Positions 45,076 to 63,809 of a DNA stretch of 64,000 nucleotides are shown piece after piece (the first letter of the stretch is position 1; each line of letters starts with the position of its first letter). A program made the translations under genes and the position numbers. The DNA lies in the IMG/VR virus record IMGVR_UViG_3300012347_000193, positions 46,651 through 110,650 of that record. The stretch is one strand, 5' to 3'. This stretch comes from a virus. The notes beneath the pieces are model-generated. The model did no database searches. It had not been told where the DNA came from and saw nothing but the letters and a program-made list of their open reading frames with translations.

Positions 45076-48000
45076 TTAACCGTATGATGCTGATTGACCA
45101 AGAACAGTCCATGTTCCTGAACTGCTTCTAATTAGTGAGTAAGAAACAACATCAATTTTATTGCTTGAAGCAGTGGGAGCAGTAGAACTAATCCACTTAA
45201 TTGTTTGCGATGCACCTGCAATCTGAAAATCTGTTGGCAGATATCCAGTAGCCCCTTGAGTTACTATAAATGTTACTATAGTTGTTCTATTAGTTGTAGT
45301 GGGGACGTTAATTAAATTTATTGACCATGATGCTGTCGTAGTCACATCAAACACTGACCCGGTAGTTAAGTCATATTCTTTGAGACCCGACGGGGATGAT
45401 GAAAGTGTAACATCTTGTGTTGCCTGAAACGTAACGAACCCTGTAGTGAAATTAGTATTTCCTGCAACGTTTAACCCAGTCAGCATACCAACACTAGTGA
45501 TATTGGGTTGTGCTGATGATGTGACGGTTTCGGCAACTAATGCGTTAGCGACTTGACCTGATACATTAGCACCTGCTACTGAATTAGCAGTTGTTGCGTA
45601 AGTAACTGCACCTGATACGTTTGCTCCAGCTACTGCGTTAGCGATTGCGGCATAGCTTACTTGACCGGTTACGTTAGCACCCTGAATGTTACTTAGATTG
45701 TTACCGGCACCTATGAAGTAATTAGCTGTGATTTCGTTCACGCCAGTGATAGAACCGCCTGATCCTGATCCTGCGACAATTTTTGTAGTAACTGTTAAGT
45801 TGCCTGAGATTTCGGCACCTGAACTAGAAACTGATAACACATTTGCAACACCTGCTACGCTTGTTGTAACTTCACCGCCTGATGTGCTAACGCTTACATT
45901 ACTTGTTCCGTTGCTAATGATTGAGGATGTACCACCTGCTACTGATGCCCAAGAAAGAGTGCCGCTGCCATCGGTTCTTAAATACTGACCTGACGTGCCC
46001 CCTGCAATATGTAAGTTACCTACACTACCTAAAGTGACGTTCGCAGTTGTCGTAAAGTTAACGACACCGGTTGCATTACTTACAGTCAATCCAGTTAATG
46101 AACCTACACTGGTGATATTAGGTTGCGCATTTGTGTAAACAGTACTAGCAACTAATGCATTAGCTACTTGTCCTGAAATGTTTGCACCTGGCAAGCTAGT
46201 TAACAAGCTACCATCTGCACTGATTTTATGACTAAAGGTAAACGAGTTAGTGCTGTTGATATACAACATATTTGCACTAGCGCCGTTGATAATGATACCG
46301 GCACCGTTTGCTAATGTAGAGCTTGATGCGTCATTTGCTAATACTAATGCCAAGTCATCAACTTGTACTATAGTGGAATTAATAGAAGTTACTGTACCGT
46401 TAACAGTCAAGTTCCCACCGACTACTAAGTTTCCATTAATGCCTAAGTTAGTTAATGTGCCAACTGATGTAATGTTAGGTTGAGCGTTAGTGTAAACCGT
46501 ACCCGCTACCAATGCGTTAGCTACTTGGCCTGATACATTTGCACCTGCAACACTGTTAGCAGTCACCGCAGTTGTTGCTACTAAAGCGTTAGCTACTTGA
46601 CCCGATACGTTAGCGCCGGCTACACTGTTGGCTGTTGTTGCGTAAGTTGCTAATCCAACTGCACCTGTTATATTTGCACCCTGAATGTTGCTTAGATTGT
46701 TACCGGAGCCTGAAAAATAATTCGCAGTTACTAAGTTGCCTAAGTCGGCGTTACTAGTGATTAGCTTGTTGTTAGCGTAATCAAACACTAAGCTACCACT
46801 TGCCCCAAAATCCCCTGCATAATTAAATTGAATTTGAGTATCTGCACCTGCTACTGTACTAGTGCCACCACCGCCACCGGTCGTAGCTGTAATCCAAGAC
46901 AACTGACCTGCACCATCCGTAGACAATACTTGTCCTGAGATGCCTCCCGTGATATGAATATTACTGACGACACCTAAATTAACGTTACTTGCTCCTGCAA
47001 GATTAACTACTCCAGTGCTAACTAATCCAGTAAGAGTGCCAACACTCGTAATGTTGGATTGGGTAGCATCAGTTACAGTATTAGCGGTACTGATGATAGT
47101 GGGCTTGTTAGTTAAATCAGTATAACTACCGCTGAATAGAGTTGGCTTATTAGCTAATGATGAATACTCTCCGTCGAACAGTGTAGGCTTGTTAGTTAAA
47201 TCAGTATAACTACCGCTGAATAACGCCGGCTTATTGGCTAACGATGCATACTCCCCATCGAATAACGCAGGGGTATTACTTAAATCGGTGTAGTCACCCG
47301 AGATTGCTACTGCTGCCAAGTCACTAGTATCTGCTTTATTGGCAAGACTGTTAGTTATTGTAGTTGTGAAAGAAGCGTCATTGCCTAACGCATTCGCAAG
47401 TTCATTTAAAGTGTTTAATACTGCAGGAGCACCACCAACTAAGTCGCTGACTGCACTATCAACGTATAAGGTAGAAGCAAAGTACGTGTCAGGGTGACCA
47501 TTCAATGAAACAGCATTCACATTAGTAACTGAGCTACCGTTACCTGCCAAGAACGTAGCTGATAATGTACGTGAAGTCTTGTTAAATGTTAAGTTACCGT
47601 CTCCGGCAGTTGTACCGTTATCGTTAAATTGAATTTGCGTATTACTACCTGCAGGATCACTGACACCGCTAGTACTAACCCCAGTCAATTGACTACCGTC
47701 ACCAAAGAAACGTGTAGCAGTGATGTTGCCGTTGACTGTTAACCCGGTCAGTGTACCTACACTAGTGATGTTGGGTTGAGCGTTAGTAAACACTGTACCG
47801 GACATGTGAGAACTAGGCACTTCACCGTATATGTTTGCCGCTCTAATATTACCTATCATGTAGCCATCACCCTGCAAGAATGATGCTTTTAATACATTTG
47901 TAGTTCGGTTGAAGGTTAGATTAGAACTAGCACCTAGATTACCGTTGTTATTGAATTGAATTTGAGTGTTACTACCTGCAGTCGTCTGTCCGCCTGTCAG

Positions 48001-54041: not shown

Positions 54042-54331
54042 TAATCTTCAGCTTCTATCTTAACAATTTCAGGATAGTCTTCCATTTCAAGTACGTCACC
54101 TTCTTCTGATAAATCTACTAAATTTTCAGCAATAATATGTAGTTCAACATCTTGCCATGCGTCTTCTCTCGCCCATTCTAATAAACGAATCATCAAAGGT
54201 ACATTGAGTTTAATAACGTCTTCTTCATTTTCGTTCGGCTTAGTTAAAGTTCTTTTACGCATTGAAGCCGGCATTACGGCCGGGTCAGCAAAGTGTTCTT
54301 CGACAATTTTATGTGTGATTTTTTTATACAT
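54041..54331 (-). CDS. 96-aa acidic protein with N-terminal MYKKITHKIVEEHF tag
   Basis: Start reassigned to MYKKITH (AGGA RBS); core 'VPLMIRLLEWAREDA...LH'. Confidence 0.75.
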   Translation of the reverse strand: MYKKITHKIVEEHFADPAVMPASMRKRTLTKPNENEEDVIKLNVPLMIRLLEWAREDAWQDVELHIIAENLVDLSEEGDVLEMEDYPEIVKIEAED

Positions 54332-57896: not shown

Positions 57897-58591
57897 TATG
57901 ACTTATCCTTCTCTTTTGCTAACCAGCCACTAAGTACAGTACGCAATAGTGAATGTTTTACCGGTGCAGGTTCTTCTTCTACTACGGGTTCTTGTGTTAC
58001 TGCAGGTTCTTCTTCTACTACGGGTTCTTGTGTTACTGCAGGTTCTTCTACTACTACAGGCTCTGCTATTGGAGCTGAGTTATCCAAGTTAATAGGTTCA
58101 TGAATGATAACAAAATCCCCACCTGATTGTACTACTCTAGTAATCGTAGGTACTGAAGGAGGCATCTCAGTTACACCACCGGTGTCAATCATACTTGTTT
58201 GTACAGGTAAATTGTATGCTGCCTGCAATTGCTCTGTTATTGAAGGTGTTATTGCATCCTGATATGACATAGGTGTTTCATCCTCAAGTATTACTTGAGG
58301 CGCAGTTGGTTCTGATATCTCTACGGGAGTGTTAGACTCACTTGCTGCAGGTTGATTTGATTTATTATAAAGCTCTAATGCTTTAGCAACAACCTCTTGC
58401 TCTGTTGGGAACAACTTTGCAGTAGGATATGGAATTAATACACCCTTAGTCTTCCATGCTATTTGACTTTCACGCAGCCATTGTTGATGGTGCGTCCCTC
58501 TCAATGCAAGATAATCTTGTATTAAGAGTTGCTTTGCAACTTGAAGTAATTCTTCTCGTTTTTTAAATTCATCTGAATTAATCTGGCTCAT
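57896..58591 (-). CDS. Hypothetical protein with helical N-terminal domain and P/E/V-rich tail
   Basis: 'REELLQ.AK..L...FPTEQEVV.KA..LY' followed by tandem EEEPAVTQEPVV. Confidence 0.7.
   Translation of the reverse strand: MSQINSDEFKKREELLQVAKQLLIQDYLALRGTHHQQWLRESQIAWKTKGVLIPYPTAKLFPTEQEVVAKALELYNKSNQPAASESNTPVEISEPTAPQVILEDETPMSYQDAITPSITEQLQAAYNLPVQTSMIDTGGVTEMPPSVPTITRVVQSGGDFVIIHEPINLDNSAPIAEPVVVEEPAVTQEPVVEEEPAVTQEPVVEEEPAPVKHSLLRTVLSGWLAKEKDKS
57965..58049. repeat. 36-bp tandem repeat (about 2.4 copies)
   Basis: TGCAGGTTCTTCTTCTACTACGGGTTCTTGTGTTAC at 57965 and 58001, with a partial copy at 58037. Confidence 0.9.
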
Positions 58592-58821
58592 AATGCTTTA
58601 CCTGCTAAATGTAATACCAATGCAAACGCACCACTCAACCCACCTGTAACAAACGATAATGCTGCTGCAAAAATCATTCGCTTATGTACCTTGTTCTGTT
58701 CAATAATTTCGTTTAGTTTATTCTCTAACGACTTATGGCGCTGGGCACACAGTGCTACGTGAGCCTCAAGGTTAGTAGATTCAATTGGCTTATCACCGGA
58801 AGAAACAGTAATCATTGACAT
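58588..58821 (-). CDS. Small coiled-coil protein with C-terminal transmembrane helix
   Basis: LEAHVALCAQRH..LE.KL followed by a hydrophobic C-terminus. Confidence 0.7.
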   Translation of the reverse strand: MSMITVSSGDKPIESTNLEAHVALCAQRHKSLENKLNEIIEQNKVHKRMIFAAALSFVTGGLSGAFALVLHLAGKAL

Positions 58822-58824
58822 ATA

Positions 58825-59529
58825 TTACTCGATAAATGATAGTGGGTACTGAGCAATAACTCCGCGACTTAACACATCTGCTAAACTTGGATAACCTTTG
58901 TTAACATGATTTGCAATACCGGTAATAACTAGTTTATTGATACCATCAATACTTTCTGCGTTCATAATAACATTGTTTGTGATACGTGCGTTGATGTTAT
59001 CAGTCCACAACTGCGTTAATGCGTGTAGCATTTCTTGTATCAACGATACAGGATACTGTCCTGGATTTAGCTTATTGAACAATTCAGCAAGTTGAGTAGT
59101 CTGTTCTGCCCACTTAATTTGCAAAGGCACAATGTCACCTTTTTTCTTTGACACTTCTACTACTTCGACTCCGGTTTCAAATATAGCATTCAACATTTTC
59201 CCGATATCACTACCGGCGCGAATGCCATAGTATGGTATAAAATAATCACCAATCATTGTTGCAGATTTAGTTAAACGTTCTTCTACACTAGGAGTTGTTG
59301 ATAAGTCAGCAACAGAGCTAACAGCATAGTTAACTAGACCCAAAGAATATTTCGTCCATAGGGTCCTGCTATCCATCCTGAAGACTAATGTTTTTTCATT
59401 CACTACAACAGAAGGTAGTGGACTTAGCGTAGCTTTAGTTGGTACCATACTGGCTTTTACTTCCGTAGGTAGTGCTAGTGGACTATCAAAGTGTTCTTCG
59501 ACTATATCGTGTGTTATCTTTTTATACAT
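58825..59529 (-). CDS. All-helical bundle protein with MYKKITHDIVEEHF tag
   Basis: Paralogue of 59531-60346 (W......S....; YG...; LA......N; AD..S.G.I). Confidence 0.75.
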   Translation of the reverse strand: MYKKITHDIVEEHFDSPLALPTEVKASMVPTKATLSPLPSVVVNEKTLVFRMDSRTLWTKYSLGLVNYAVSSVADLSTTPSVEERLTKSATMIGDYFIPYYGIRAGSDIGKMLNAIFETGVEVVEVSKKKGDIVPLQIKWAEQTTQLAELFNKLNPGQYPVSLIQEMLHALTQLWTDNINARITNNVIMNAESIDGINKLVITGIANHVNKGYPSLADVLSRGVIAQYPLSFIE

Positions 59530-59530
59530 T

Positions 59531-60346
59531 TTAACAACCCATATCGTCTAATGCATCGTACATTTCATTTTCTATTTTCTTTGCTGTGTAGTCAATTATT
59601 CCCGATGAGAACACATCAGCAAAACTAGGATTACCATTTTCTTGCTTTACTACTAAAATGTTGTATGCTCCGTCGGCAGCAATGTCCCCTGCTTCCCATT
59701 CTCTTTTCATGCGTGAGATTGCTTGCATGATATATAAATTTTCTACTTGAGTGAGGATATCTACTACTGCGGTAGAAGGCCACAATGCGTTTGCGCTTTC
59801 TAAGAAGTCACCTAGTGATTTTGTAGCATCAGCAAGAATCTTCATAGTGTCAGTTGTGTCTTTGTCATTCTTAACTTGTACAATCACGTCGGCTAATGCC
59901 AACGCAACATTAGTTAACAATGTTTTAAATTGTGTAGCTGCTTCTGTACCATAGCACTCTGAAACAATGCTAGTGATATTATCAATGTCAGCAACTAGTT
60001 TAGTTTTCAATGATTCTGTATCTGTACTACCTGATGTGATACTAACTACAAGACTGCGAATTCTCCAAGCTAATTGAGACCAGTAACTTGTACTATCTTT
60101 TTCGATTTGACTTAAAGATGAATCGTCATATACTTTGATCCAACTTTTACTTTTTGCATCATATCTGTTATTTGATTGTGATTTAGATTTTGCGGTATGA
60201 TATACAATCTCACCGGTGACAGGGTCTACGACTCCTCCCATGTTTTTAGCAGTCTTTGATTTTCTTTCAATCTTTGCTTTTAATTCTGCGGCGATAGGGT
60301 GCGCAAAGTGTTCTTCTACGATGTGGTGTGTGATTTTTTTGTACAT
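59531..60346 (-). CDS. All-helical bundle protein with MYKKITHHIVEEHF tag
   Basis: Paralogue of 58825-59529; AAGGA RBS. Confidence 0.75.
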   Translation of the reverse strand: MYKKITHHIVEEHFAHPIAAELKAKIERKSKTAKNMGGVVDPVTGEIVYHTAKSKSQSNNRYDAKSKSWIKVYDDSSLSQIEKDSTSYWSQLAWRIRSLVVSITSGSTDTESLKTKLVADIDNITSIVSECYGTEAATQFKTLLTNVALALADVIVQVKNDKDTTDTMKILADATKSLGDFLESANALWPSTAVVDILTQVENLYIMQAISRMKREWEAGDIAADGAYNILVVKQENGNPSFADVFSSGIIDYTAKKIENEMYDALDDMGC

Positions 60347-60355
60347 GATTGTTCC

Positions 60356-60562
60356 TTACCAAACTACTGTTGGTGTTGATGTTTGATTGACACCGAACAT
60401 ATTGCCGGTGTTTACTAAATTTTGATTGGAGATTGCACTGCCAATGACATTTGAACTAGAGTAGTTGCCATAGCCATAGGGAATGCCATAACTATAGTTT
60501 GGATAGGCATATGGAAAGAAGTAGCTGCTTCTGTAGTTGGGGTATAAGTAACCATAAAACAT
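60356..60562 (-). CDS. 68-aa Tyr/Pro/Gly-rich protein with shared C-terminal motif
   Basis: YPNY repeats followed by SAISNQNLVNTG...QTSTP; strong RBS AAAGGAAAATAAAAAATG. Confidence 0.75.
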   Translation of the reverse strand: MFYGYLYPNYRSSYFFPYAYPNYSYGIPYGYGNYSSSNVIGSAISNQNLVNTGNMFGVNQTSTPTVVW

Positions 60563-60577
60563 TTTTTATTTTCCTTT

Positions 60578-60611
60578 AAAAAACGTGAGCCAACCTTTTG
60601 AGTCGGCCCAC
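60578..60611 (-). terminator. Intrinsic terminator or attenuator inside the module
   Basis: Minus strand: GTGGGCCGAC-TCAAAAG-GTTGGCTCAC-GTTTTTT. Confidence 0.7.
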
Positions 60612-60638
60612 TATCTTAACGTTTAGTCGTAAGTTGGA

Positions 60639-60836
60639 TTAATAGTAACCATAGCCGCCTAAGCCGCCATACCCACCGTAACCACCATACAAACCATATC
60701 CGGGATACCCGAAGCCATAGCCATAGAAAGGTGACGCTATACCGCCCATATAGGGATAACCTATACCAGCGCCTAGATAACCTCTACCAAGACCAAGACC
60801 ACCGTAGCCCATATAACCATAATTGGATCTAAACAT
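60639..60836 (-). CDS. 65-aa Gly/Tyr-rich protein
   Basis: AAGGAGG RBS; (GY/GG/YG)n composition with almost no charged residues. Confidence 0.8.
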   Translation of the reverse strand: MFRSNYGYMGYGGLGLGRGYLGAGIGYPYMGGIASPFYGYGFGYPGYGLYGGYGGYGGLGGYGYY

Positions 60837-60858
60837 ATAGATACCTCCTTATAGTTAA

Positions 60859-61413
60859 TTAATTGATGCTAGTTGGTGTTGAAGTTTGTGTTGTACCAGT
60901 CATTGTTCCAGTATTAACTAGACCTTGACTAGAGATAGCACTGTTCAACGAGTTCAAAGCACTGTTTGTACTTGCAGATTGGAATGCAGAAACTGCACCG
61001 CCGTAAGCAAGACCTAAACCACCGTACTGAACACCTAAGCCACTGTATGCAACGTTGGTATTAATCAATGCTGTGTTCAAGTTTTGTGTATTCAATGCGT
61101 TGACTAGACCGCGTGTCAATTCGCCTTGTTCCATTACTGCACGTGTTGTGGCAGCTGCGGTTTGAGCGACTACTGCATCTGTGCGGGCAGCAGCCAACAT
61201 TGTTTGCAATGTACCGTTAGATACTTCTTGCTTCAAGTCAGCCAATGCTGATGCATCGTGTAATGCAACTTGCATAGCGCGGTTGTTGATGTCGTTTGTT
61301 TGTGCGACTTGTAGTTTGTAGTTTTCGAATACACTATCAGAAACTTTTTCTCTTAAACTTGCAGTTTCACGTGAAAGATGAAAGAACGGGTCAGTTGTTA
61401 AAAAATCAGCCAT
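60859..61413 (-). CDS. 184-aa Ala/Thr/Asn-rich helical protein (paralogue B)
   Basis: Aligns end to end with 61602-62162; strong RBS. Confidence 0.85.
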   Translation of the reverse strand: MADFLTTDPFFHLSRETASLREKVSDSVFENYKLQVAQTNDINNRAMQVALHDASALADLKQEVSNGTLQTMLAAARTDAVVAQTAAATTRAVMEQGELTRGLVNALNTQNLNTALINTNVAYSGLGVQYGGLGLAYGGAVSAFQSASTNSALNSLNSAISSQGLVNTGTMTGTTQTSTPTSIN

Positions 61414-61457
61414 TTTATTTTTTCCTTATAATAAGCCGGGACATTACATCCCTGAAA

Positions 61458-61557
61458 TGCTGAACGATAGAACCTATTTCTATCACAGCATATAATTACT
61501 TAAACGAAAAAATGACTGTTTCCATATGCTACAAGTATTGCATGTACTTCAGTACGG
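61458..61557 (-). promoter_or_regulatory. Conserved upstream element, copy 1 (operator, TAAGTA, 5' hairpin)
   Basis: Same motifs and spacing as 62185-62283. Confidence 0.6.
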
Positions 61558-61558
61558 T

Positions 61559-61583
61559 AAAAAACCTGCCGAAGCAGGTTTTT
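61559..61583. terminator. Bidirectional-type intrinsic terminator after paralogue A
   Basis: AAAAAACCTGC-CGAA-GCAGGTTTTT (TTCG loop on the minus strand). Confidence 0.85.
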
Positions 61584-61601
61584 ATATTGCAAGTTTCAAT
61601 A

Positions 61602-62162
61602 TTAATTGATACTTTGTGGATTACTAGTTTGCGTAGTGTTTGCAATGTTGCCCGTATTTATCAAGCGTTGATTTGAGATAGCACTGTCTAAAGCATTAAT
61701 AGCACTATTTGTTGATGCGATTTGTGTTGCATTTACTGCACCACTATACGCAAGACCCATACCACCGTACAATGTGTTCAAGCCACTGTATGCGACATTG
61801 GTGTTAATCAAACCTGTATTCAAGTTTTGTGTATTCAATGCGTTAACTAGACCACGTGTCATCTCACCGTTCTCCATTACTGCACGAGTAGTTTCAGCAG
61901 CAGTTCTGCCGATTACTGCATCAGTACGAGCGGCAGCTAACATTGTTTCTAATGTGCCTTTGCTTACAGCGCCTTTTAAATCAGCTAATGCTGATGTGTT
62001 GCGCAATGCTACTTGCATACCGCGATTGTTAATGTCGTTTGTTTGTGCGACTTGTAGTTTGTAGTTTTCGAAAATACTATCAGATACTTTTTCTCTTAGA
62101 CTTGCGTTTTCACGTGAAAGATGAAAGAAAGGATCGGTTGCTAGTGTTGAAATTTCAGCCAT
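61602..62162 (-). CDS. 186-aa Ala/Thr/Asn-rich helical protein (paralogue A)
   Basis: TDPFFHLSRE.ASLREKVSDS.FENYKLQVAQTNDINNR is shared with paralogue B. Confidence 0.85.
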   Translation of the reverse strand: MAEISTLATDPFFHLSRENASLREKVSDSIFENYKLQVAQTNDINNRGMQVALRNTSALADLKGAVSKGTLETMLAAARTDAVIGRTAAETTRAVMENGEMTRGLVNALNTQNLNTGLINTNVAYSGLNTLYGGMGLAYSGAVNATQIASTNSAINALDSAISNQRLINTGNIANTTQTSNPQSIN

Positions 62163-62184: not shown

Positions 62185-62283
62185 ATACTTCATATAGAAC
62201 CCATTTCTATTGTAGTATATTATTACTTAAAAGAAAAACACTTTCAAAATTACGTAGCATTTACTAGCCTGTACTTGAGAACT
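62185..62283 (-). promoter_or_regulatory. Conserved upstream element, copy 2
   Basis: Same motifs and spacing as 61458-61557. Confidence 0.6.
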
Positions 62284-62324: not shown

Positions 62325-63137
62325 TTATTTTGAGAACATTGCCAGTTGAGTGCGATTCTTTACATTAAACTTTTCGAGCAGCTTGCCTACATGTAGTTTC
62401 ACAGTGCTTTCAGTGATGTTTAGAATTTTTGCAATTGTTTTATTGCTTGCACCACGCTCTTGAATGAGCTTGAGAATCTCACCTTGCCTGGGAGTCAATG
62501 TGATTTCACTGTTATGTTTGATTTTAGTAGGGCTACCGGGCAAGTTATCTAAGATATGCTTCGGCCAGTAAGGAATGCTATTAGATAGTGCATTGATGCT
62601 TTTATTAACGTCATCAATTGAGTAGTCCACACCATCTAGCAGAACTCCTTGGCATTGAGTTCTTTGTAACTCTTTGATAAGACTTCTGGGTGTATCTTTC
62701 TTGATAACAATGCCTATCCTTAGGTCATCTTTACATGGCATAAATTTTGTAATAGTTGTCAATGCATCCATAAACTCTATCGCGGAACTTCCCGGAGGTC
62801 TAGCTAACATGTCAACGTGAATTGCCAACAAGGTCACTTTGCTTGCACTCTCTTGCAGTGCATTGGCAAGTTCAGCCCATGTACTAGGCATTGTCCACGT
62901 AAAATTAAAGTCTTCCTTAATTCTACCCGTACATTTGGGAGTACTACTATGGTCTTCTCTAAAGTAAATAACGTTTGGTTTGAGTTCTATGTTCATATCA
63001 GTACTTACAGAGTCATCTACTTCCGCATCAAATACAACAGTATAGGCTGTACTACAGTCTGGCAGTAATGAAGTTGACACAGAAAAAAATGTGTCTGGTA
63101 GTGTGCGGAAATTAATCTTCTCGGATGAGTTTATCAT
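62325..63137 (-). CDS. LuxR/NarL-family HTH transcriptional regulator with degenerate receiver-like domain
   Basis: C-terminal LTPRQ.EIL.LI..G.SNK.IA..L.ITESTVK.HV..LL.KF.V.NRTQL. Confidence 0.9.
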   Translation of the reverse strand: MINSSEKINFRTLPDTFFSVSTSLLPDCSTAYTVVFDAEVDDSVSTDMNIELKPNVIYFREDHSSTPKCTGRIKEDFNFTWTMPSTWAELANALQESASKVTLLAIHVDMLARPPGSSAIEFMDALTTITKFMPCKDDLRIGIVIKKDTPRSLIKELQRTQCQGVLLDGVDYSIDDVNKSINALSNSIPYWPKHILDNLPGSPTKIKHNSEITLTPRQGEILKLIQERGASNKTIAKILNITESTVKLHVGKLLEKFNVKNRTQLAMFSK

Positions 63138-63344: not shown

Positions 63345-63809
63345 ATGGAAATCGAAATTGTAACTCGTTCAGTCAAGCGCAAGTTTGTACTTGAAAATGC
63401 AACCAAGTTCTTGCGTAAAGAACTAAAATTGGAGAAAAGCAAATATGCGTTAACAGTTTACAATGCACCCGGATTGCGCAAGCGTGAAGGGTTTAATGGT
63501 ATCTGCTCAAAAGTAGGAGACCGCGAAATCGTCATTATCGTTGACGGTGGTTTGGGAGAGTGTGACCTCATTCAGTGTATTGCACACGAAATGGTTCACG
63601 CCAAACAAATCGCAAAAGGTCAACTACAACTCGACACCAAAAATCGTCAAACATGGTTGGGTCAACGGGTGTCCAAAGAGTATCACGAACGTCCTTGGGA
63701 ACAAGAAGCGTTCGCACGTGAAAGAATCTTGGCTTATCGTGCAATGTCATTCTGTCAAAAAGAAATGACAAAACGGGCAAACAAAGTTCTAAAACAGTTT
63801 GACAAATAA
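63345..63809 (+). CDS. Zn metallopeptidase-like protein (HExxH)
   Basis: IAHEMVHAKQ...Y..RPWE.EA. Confidence 0.8.
   Translation: MEIEIVTRSVKRKFVLENATKFLRKELKLEKSKYALTVYNAPGLRKREGFNGICSKVGDREIVIIVDGGLGECDLIQCIAHEMVHAKQIAKGQLQLDTKNRQTWLGQRVSKEYHERPWEQEAFARERILAYRAMSFCQKEMTKRANKVLKQFDK

Follow-up and report, generated by a model that had tools for sequence, protein, structure and literature searches.

The fungal HET-s/NWD2 and the bacterial BASS (Bell-domain/NLR) gene pairs encode amyloid signalling motif pairs (bioRxiv 10.1101/2020.01.06.895854), in which a short, uncharged N/Q/G-rich motif stands at the C-terminus of a helical protein and is found again on the protein that the adjacent collinear gene encodes. 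In the curli system the major subunit CsgA and the less expressed minor subunit CsgB have an S/Q/N/G-rich strand-turn-strand unit in common. In T4 fibritin a long helix is followed by the foldon, a terminal element of about 27 amino acids (aa) with a central turn, and both the T4 capsid-targeting sequence (CTS) and the encapsulin cargo-loading peptides are short portable terminal peptides that occur on different proteins of one particle. A gene cassette that is reminiscent of each of these, as judged from sequence alone, is present in a 64,000-nucleotide (nt) stretch of viral DNA, hereafter the window, which comprises positions 46,651 to 110,650 of the 110,650-base IMG/VR record IMGVR_UViG_3300012347_000193. 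Among the genes of the record are those of a gp23-type major capsid protein (PF07068, 2.2e-99) and of a prohead protease of the gp21 type (PF03420, 5.1e-30), and its source is therefore a T4-type phage. The cassette comprises the genes of two paralogous long proteins, A and B, a small Gly/Tyr-rich (GY) protein and a Tyr-rich micro-protein. A, B and the micro-protein end in a common tail of about 27 aa, and the tails of the long and the micro class co-vary within the same genome, which is a new result.

The common uncharged C-terminus of A, B and the micro-protein was first described in a sequence-only reading of the window, and the translations of the open reading frames (ORFs) agree with the ends that it quoted. 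In a tblastn search of its own genome the micro-protein tail is matched by A (E=4e-5), and in the six-frame translation of the 110-kb record the micro-protein scores 45.6 bits (E=4e-13) against a hidden Markov model (HMM) to which tails of long proteins alone contributed. The top score among 2000 shuffles of its last 32 residues was 16.3 bits, and the similarity is thus due neither to chance nor to composition. The HMM detects the motif in no other frame of the record, which leaves three carriers. A scan of IMG/VR gave 42 loci (referred to below by L numbers), and when the profile search, which the earlier reading had put forward as a check, was extended to all 5340 ORFs therein the carriers again belonged to the long and the micro classes. 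The motif is conserved in homologues, with relatives at 31-39% identity retaining it, and it is among the best-conserved parts of the long-protein family. Long and micro tails share the skeleton N..S....Q...NTG...G..Q...PT.I and differ by class in the flanking residues. In particular, 114 of 120 database micro-proteins end in Trp, in contrast to the variable last residue of the long proteins, and 90 of the 120 possess the head motif YxYPxYRS. As described earlier, a Gly/Tyr segment precedes the motif in both long proteins (residues 125-141 of A and 123-139 of B). The proposed resemblance of this segment to the GY protein did not hold up, being compositional: the YGGLGL match of B is absent from other loci. 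The description of the micro-protein as otherwise unrelated to the long proteins is only partly correct, since the micro-proteins of L041-L043 retain the AVQSAN stretch of the latter. Those of L041 (7781-8038) and L043 (7793-8053) are longer, at 86-87 aa, and the stretch precedes the tail as it does in the long proteins. Its retention makes descent from the C-terminus of a long paralogue possible, and the micro-protein may, on this sequence evidence, be a truncated and diverged long paralogue with a new Tyr-rich head.

The tail exists in several variants. Besides the standard turn, NTG, there is an IGxGAxGG loop that is longer by one residue (8 distinct loci); other tails begin with AFQSQ, or with SQLQ plus extra residues, and in yet others the conserved Q that lies 13 residues before the last invariant Gln is replaced by N. 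The long protein or proteins and the micro-protein carry the matching variant in 36/36 within-genome pairs; L046 and L047 were flagged as discordant owing to the sequence window of the automatic classification and are concordant when read directly. The mean tail identity of micro- to long proteins is 0.61 within their own locus and 0.43 with other loci. At the residues common to both tails, codon identity is 0.47 within loci compared with 0.42 between loci, which indicates that the agreement is kept at the protein level and not via recent gene conversion. On a maximum-likelihood tree of the long-protein body, from which the last 40 residues had been removed, the tail variants are scattered, and the branches with good support require the Q-to-N state to have arisen at least twice. 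The micro-gene of L025 is near-identical to that of its sister L016 except for four adjacent codons that place Asn at the Q-to-N site, where the tail of the long protein of L025 likewise carries Asn.

The long-protein family is abundant yet phylogenetically narrow, as at least 731 homologous clusters of A, all of them unnamed, are found in metagenomes and these amount to 18 clusters at 50% clustering. The micro-protein family comprises at least 193 clusters in public data. The phages that carry the cassette are uncultured freshwater jumbo phages of the T4 type, which form a widespread clade; contigs bearing homologues of the long protein reach 337 kb, and the genome of the source phage is probably about 340 kb in size (the CheckV completeness of the record is 32%). 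In nearly every locus that extends far enough the tail is carried by a single micro-protein and by one or two long proteins, and by no others. The gene order is constant, with a LuxR/GerE-type regulator followed by the long protein(s), the GY protein, the micro-protein and a helical bundle that begins with the sequence MYKKITHxIVEEHF. A member of the GY family sits between the long and the micro genes in 32/43 loci. GY proteins (50-73 aa) form a true family with the conserved core RGYLxAGIGYPY that goes beyond mere low-complexity sequence, and several members contain paired Cys residues. Among the cellular genomes of 185,579 species there is one match, L050 (CAZXGO010000088.1), on a 10.5-kb contig of a Chitinophagales metagenome-assembled genome; this is probably a binned phage fragment and the hint that it gives of a host is at most faint. 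Searches of Pfam, NCBIfam, PHROGs and PDB sequences returned nothing usable for A, B, the GY protein or the micro-protein, the sole matches being GldL at E=0.53 and weak hits to PHROGs that have no known function. A and B match no Pfam family, RebB included, at E <= 0.1, and the ESM Atlas yielded their own family plus generic helical look-alikes only (TM <= 0.52, where TM denotes the template modelling score). No fused forms were found among proteins of 428-2000 aa, which is weak evidence. A hit of 1112 aa, P0138, was set aside as a repetitive unrelated protein.

The long proteins have a bipartite make-up. The N-half of A (100 aa) contains 24 charged residues and 32% N/Q/S/T/G, the C-half (86 aa) 3 charged residues and 56% N/Q/S/T/G. 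The corresponding values for B are 21 charged residues and 31% in the N-half (98 aa), and 1 charged residue and 59% in the C-half (86 aa). From an alignment of 30 sequences, AlphaFold2 (AF2) predicts a single helix over residues 11-164 of A, with a predicted local distance difference test (pLDDT) score >90 for about residues 30-120 and a steady fall thereafter. The hydrophobic period of the long protein is 3.6-3.67 with little power at 3.5, and therefore it is not a canonical heptad coiled coil.

The box TTTAAGTAAT is located about 85-100 nt ahead of the start codons of A and B. In the 110 kb its two intergenic occurrences are those before A and B, and further matches lie inside long ORFs. The box precedes a hairpin or palindrome that is retained across the loci L006-L047 although its sequence varies. 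In the most divergent clade (L045-L047) the long gene is found behind TATAAATA instead of the box, again followed by a palindrome; we take TATAAATA to be the T4 late-promoter consensus. The LuxR/GerE-type regulator adjoining A is a candidate controller. Downstream of A lies a hairpin with a T-run, and B forms a unit with the GY gene, which has a strong AAGGAGG ribosome site and starts 22 nt after B; the unit ends in a terminator. The micro-protein gene starts behind this terminator and is tightly packed with the genes downstream. Given that A and B-GY have their own boxes, leaders and terminators and that the micro-protein gene lies behind a terminator, the sequence suggests that A, B and GY would be major products and the micro-protein a minor one. 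The positions of all features are collected in Table 1.

Table 1. Features of the cassette and its flanks; positions refer to the window.
Feature	Position	Strand	Basis or remark
Long subunit A, 186 aa	61602..62162	-	ORF; amphipathic charged helical N-half ~11-100, uncharged N/Q/S/T/G-rich C-half 101-186
Tail motif of A, 27 aa, C-terminal	61605..61685	-	HMM 65.7 bits
Gly/Tyr segment of A, residues 125-141	61740..61790	-	Y132, G136, Y139 invariant in A1
Long subunit B, 184 aa	60859..61413	-	ORF; 78% identity to A
Tail motif of B, 27 aa, C-terminal	60862..60942	-	HMM 66.6 bits
Gly/Tyr-rich (GY) protein, 65 aa, without tail motif	60639..60836	-	ORF
Tyr-rich micro-protein, 68 aa: head YxYPxYRS, variable Tyr/Gly/Pro middle, tail ending in Trp	60356..60562	-	
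Tail motif of micro-protein, 27 aa, C-terminal	60359..60439	-	tblastn, HMM, shuffles
Terminator-like hairpin and T-run 3' of A	61559..61583	-	Read from sequence
Terminator-like hairpin (11-bp stem) and T-run between GY and micro-protein genes	60578..60611	-	
Promoter-like box TTTAAGTAAT upstream of A, then hairpin leader	62217..62231	-	
Promoter-like box TTTAAGTAAT upstream of B	61490..61504	-	
LuxR/GerE-type regulator heading the cassette	62325..63137	-	Pfam GerE 1.2e-16; same place in L004, L005
Two helical-bundle paralogues tagged MYKKITHxIVEEHF, directly downstream of micro-protein	58825..60346	-	

It is proposed that the tail is a protein-protein association element which would join the long and the micro-proteins directly, tail to tail, a reading of the sequences for which belief and doubt are about evenly balanced. 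The abundant A and B subunits and the scarcer micro-protein would bind one another via their tails with equivalent tail positions in contact, as could occur in an in-register stack or about the axis of a pseudo-symmetric oligomer. Acting as an adaptor, nucleator or cap, the micro-protein would contribute its terminal Trp and its Tyr/Pro/Gly head, which would perhaps be directed towards the tail-less GY protein, and the resulting complex would have a structural role, in the virion or in its assembly. Matched loop lengths and changes at the same position are what is expected if equivalent tail positions touch. The terminal Trp and the flanking residues, being specific to one class, point to non-equivalent roles of the two classes and not to one interchangeable tag. 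The earlier suggestion that major and minor subunits co-assemble through the motif thus receives indirect support from the within-genome co-variation without recent gene conversion, and the transcription signals, with A and B-GY ahead of terminators and the micro-protein behind one, also fit it. A parallel for such an arrangement in a T4-type phage is the foldon of fibritin, together with similar C-terminal registration domains of phage fibres, as position-equivalent contacts would be expected around the symmetry axis of a domain of this type. The long proteins differ from fibritin in that they show no sequence or Pfam similarity to it and in that their hydrophobic period is not that of the 3.5-residue heptad, and fibritin has no micro-subunit that shares its terminal element.

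Several points weigh against tail-to-tail association. No cultured relative of A was found in INPHARED at the DNA or the protein level, and a 234-aa neighbour of the cassette has no protein match either. The tree of the long-protein body is poorly resolved, with 8/31 branches well supported. The 3' ends of the long genes lie within about 1.5 kb of the micro gene, and because of this tight linkage an exchange of cassettes by recombination could yield part of the concordance. Co-variation would be expected equally if both tails fitted one co-evolving third partner. Furthermore, residues 165-186 of A are a low-confidence coil in the single-chain AF2 model (pLDDT about 50). A prediction of the complex of A(96-186), B(94-184) and the micro-protein with alignments scored 0.00 against a mark of 0.32, which speaks neither for nor against binding.

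A third partner is the essence of the next explanation, according to which the tail is a docking or targeting tag and each class binds the same component, be it the core of the prohead, the inside of the capsid, the socket of a fibre or an anchor in the membrane. A place at the very end of the chain, behind a flexible stretch rich in Gly, and the occurrence on proteins with different bodies would befit such a tag, and a co-evolving receptor would account for the co-variation of the tails. Portable tags are used by T4-type phages (PMC9026906), and in the present genome the genes directly downstream of the cassette carry a portable N-terminal I-x-E tag and a gp21 homologue is present. However, only two related families bear the motif, with three carriers in 110 kb and only long and micro-proteins among the 5340 ORFs, and a terminal Trp that is restricted to the micro-protein is not expected if there is one binding site. 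Nor did any candidate for such a receptor come to light. The tail also differs from the T4 CTS in being C-terminal, in its length of 27 aa and in having no Glu, and hence no Glu cleavage site; elsewhere in the long proteins A and B the tripeptide [LIV]-x-E is about as frequent as expected by chance and is not consistently conserved. The differences between the classes and the restriction to two related families lead us to regard the docking tag as possible and as clearly less probable than direct association.

A special case of direct association, which builds on the amyloid-like beta-arc of the earlier reading, is that the tail stacks in register into a cross-beta polymer of the functional-amyloid kind with the micro-protein as nucleator; this version appears unlikely. 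The composition fits it: the tail carries no charge, is rich in N/Q/S/T/G, ends in Pro and has a conserved NTG or Gly-rich turn at its centre, and a prion-like composition extends over the whole C-half of A and B. An Asn/Gln ladder would moreover demand the same-position Q-to-N change in both partners, yet co-substitution at equivalent positions is accounted for just as readily by a symmetric oligomer, for example around a trimer axis. AF2 predicts a helix before the tail and for the tail itself a coil of low confidence. The cassette does resemble the HET-s and BASS pairs in that motifs from one gene cluster are closer to each other than to those of other clusters, and it was by this property that amyloid signalling motifs were recognised (bioRxiv 10.1101/2020.01.06.895854). 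In those pairs the partner is an NLR with the motif at its N-terminus and the system is a cell-death switch, whereas the partner here is a Tyr-rich protein of 55-87 aa with a C-terminal motif, encoded in a phage cassette that bears signals of high expression. A scan of 19 window proteins turned up neither an NB-ARC nor a NACHT domain and thus no NLR partner, and A and B have no Bell, HeLo, curlin (Curlin_rpt) or other amyloid family match in Pfam. The likeness to curli is limited in a similar way. Each protein of the cassette has a single copy of the motif with the spacing S-x4-Q-x3-NTG, in contrast to the five tandem S-x5-Q-x-G-x-G-N-x-A-x3-Q repeats and the Sec signal of CsgA and CsgB; secretion genes are absent here and the N-termini of A and B, read directly, are not signal peptides. 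It is on account of the single copy and the lack of a family match, in spite of the fitting composition and the Q/N co-substitution, that the amyloid version is placed well below the docking tag.

A related picture, and one just as doubtful, is that of an in-register prion-like hetero-polymer in which the micro-protein, by means of a matching Asn/Gln-ladder tail, would template or cap the abundant helical subunits, with the GY protein as a matrix protein; this would give an amyloid- or keratin-like material on the virion or inside the infected cell. Keratin combines helical rods with Gly/Tyr ends and separate high-Gly/Tyr matrix proteins, and the Reb proteins of R-bodies are paralogous small helical major subunits that come with small accessory proteins. 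The cassette is known here from its genes, and its likeness to both would be one of functional analogy and not of homology.

The last and least probable explanation, that the tail is an acceptor or recognition site for a modifying or processing enzyme (O-glycosylation by phage glycosyltransferases, or proteolysis), draws on the Thr/Ser/Pro-rich tail end and on a papain-like peptidase and a 2-oxoglutarate-Fe(II) (2OG-Fe(II)) oxygenase encoded nearby, but these enzymes are outside the neighbourhood conserved in L004 and L005, nothing ties them to the cassette, and both the class-specific terminal Trp and the matched change of loop length are left unexplained.

The genes that surround the cassette provide some hints of its context. 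The tag MYKKITHxIVEEHF is encoded on the minus strand at 60305-60346, 59488-59529 and 54290-54331 of the window as well as in L006-L044, and it heads two to three otherwise different proteins per genome. M1, Y2, K3, K4, H7, E11, E12 and H13 of the tag are invariant, and only at the x of I-x-E does it vary freely. The CTS of T4 is an N-terminal sequence of about 10 aa on internal proteins, and gp21 cuts after L/I-X-E (PMC9026906). The MYKKITH tag is similar to it, being N-terminal and having an I-x-E that fits the gp21 rule, with a gp21 homologue on the same record, and the sequences thus suggest that the tagged proteins are probably internal proteins directed to the prohead. Co-transcription of the micro-protein with these head-targeted proteins is probable, which hints at a connection of the cassette with the virion or the prohead.

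The tagged protein of 234 aa (58825-59529, minus strand) was considered as a functional anchor and rejected as it has no informative structural match. Its AF2 model has a pLDDT of 86.4 with the first 31 residues disordered; Foldseek gave no PDB match at E <= 0.001, and in VIA the Z values (<= 8.8) stayed within the noise of helical bundles. In BFVD the bundle is matched by a Bodo saltans virus protein that is annotated as a glycosyl transferase (TM 0.72, root-mean-square deviation 1.7 over 190 columns, E=3e-5), and three uncultured-phage proteins likewise match the model. The adjoining 77-aa protein (58588-58821, minus strand) has an N-terminal helix and a C-terminal transmembrane segment and shows weak similarity to XhlA (Pfam E=0.0014) and to holins (PHROG E=0.005); in L004 and L005, too, this protein is conserved and directly follows the MYKKITH proteins. 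On the other side of the cassette, divergent from the LuxR gene, a 154-aa protein (63345-63809, plus strand) contains a HEMVH motif, a zinc-metalloprotease-like signature, and has no Pfam match at E <= 0.01.

Overall, two unnamed protein families constitute a fixed cassette in freshwater jumbo phages, and their tails would offer a natural example of a specificity-coded association between a micro-protein and larger subunits. Deletion of the tail and Q/N swaps provide a concrete and cheap experimental handle on this association. If instead the tail were a docking tag, a second system of portable tags would be added to that of the T4 capsid-targeting sequence, and if a cross-beta or Gly/Tyr-rich matrix were formed, it would be a material not yet described for tailed phages.

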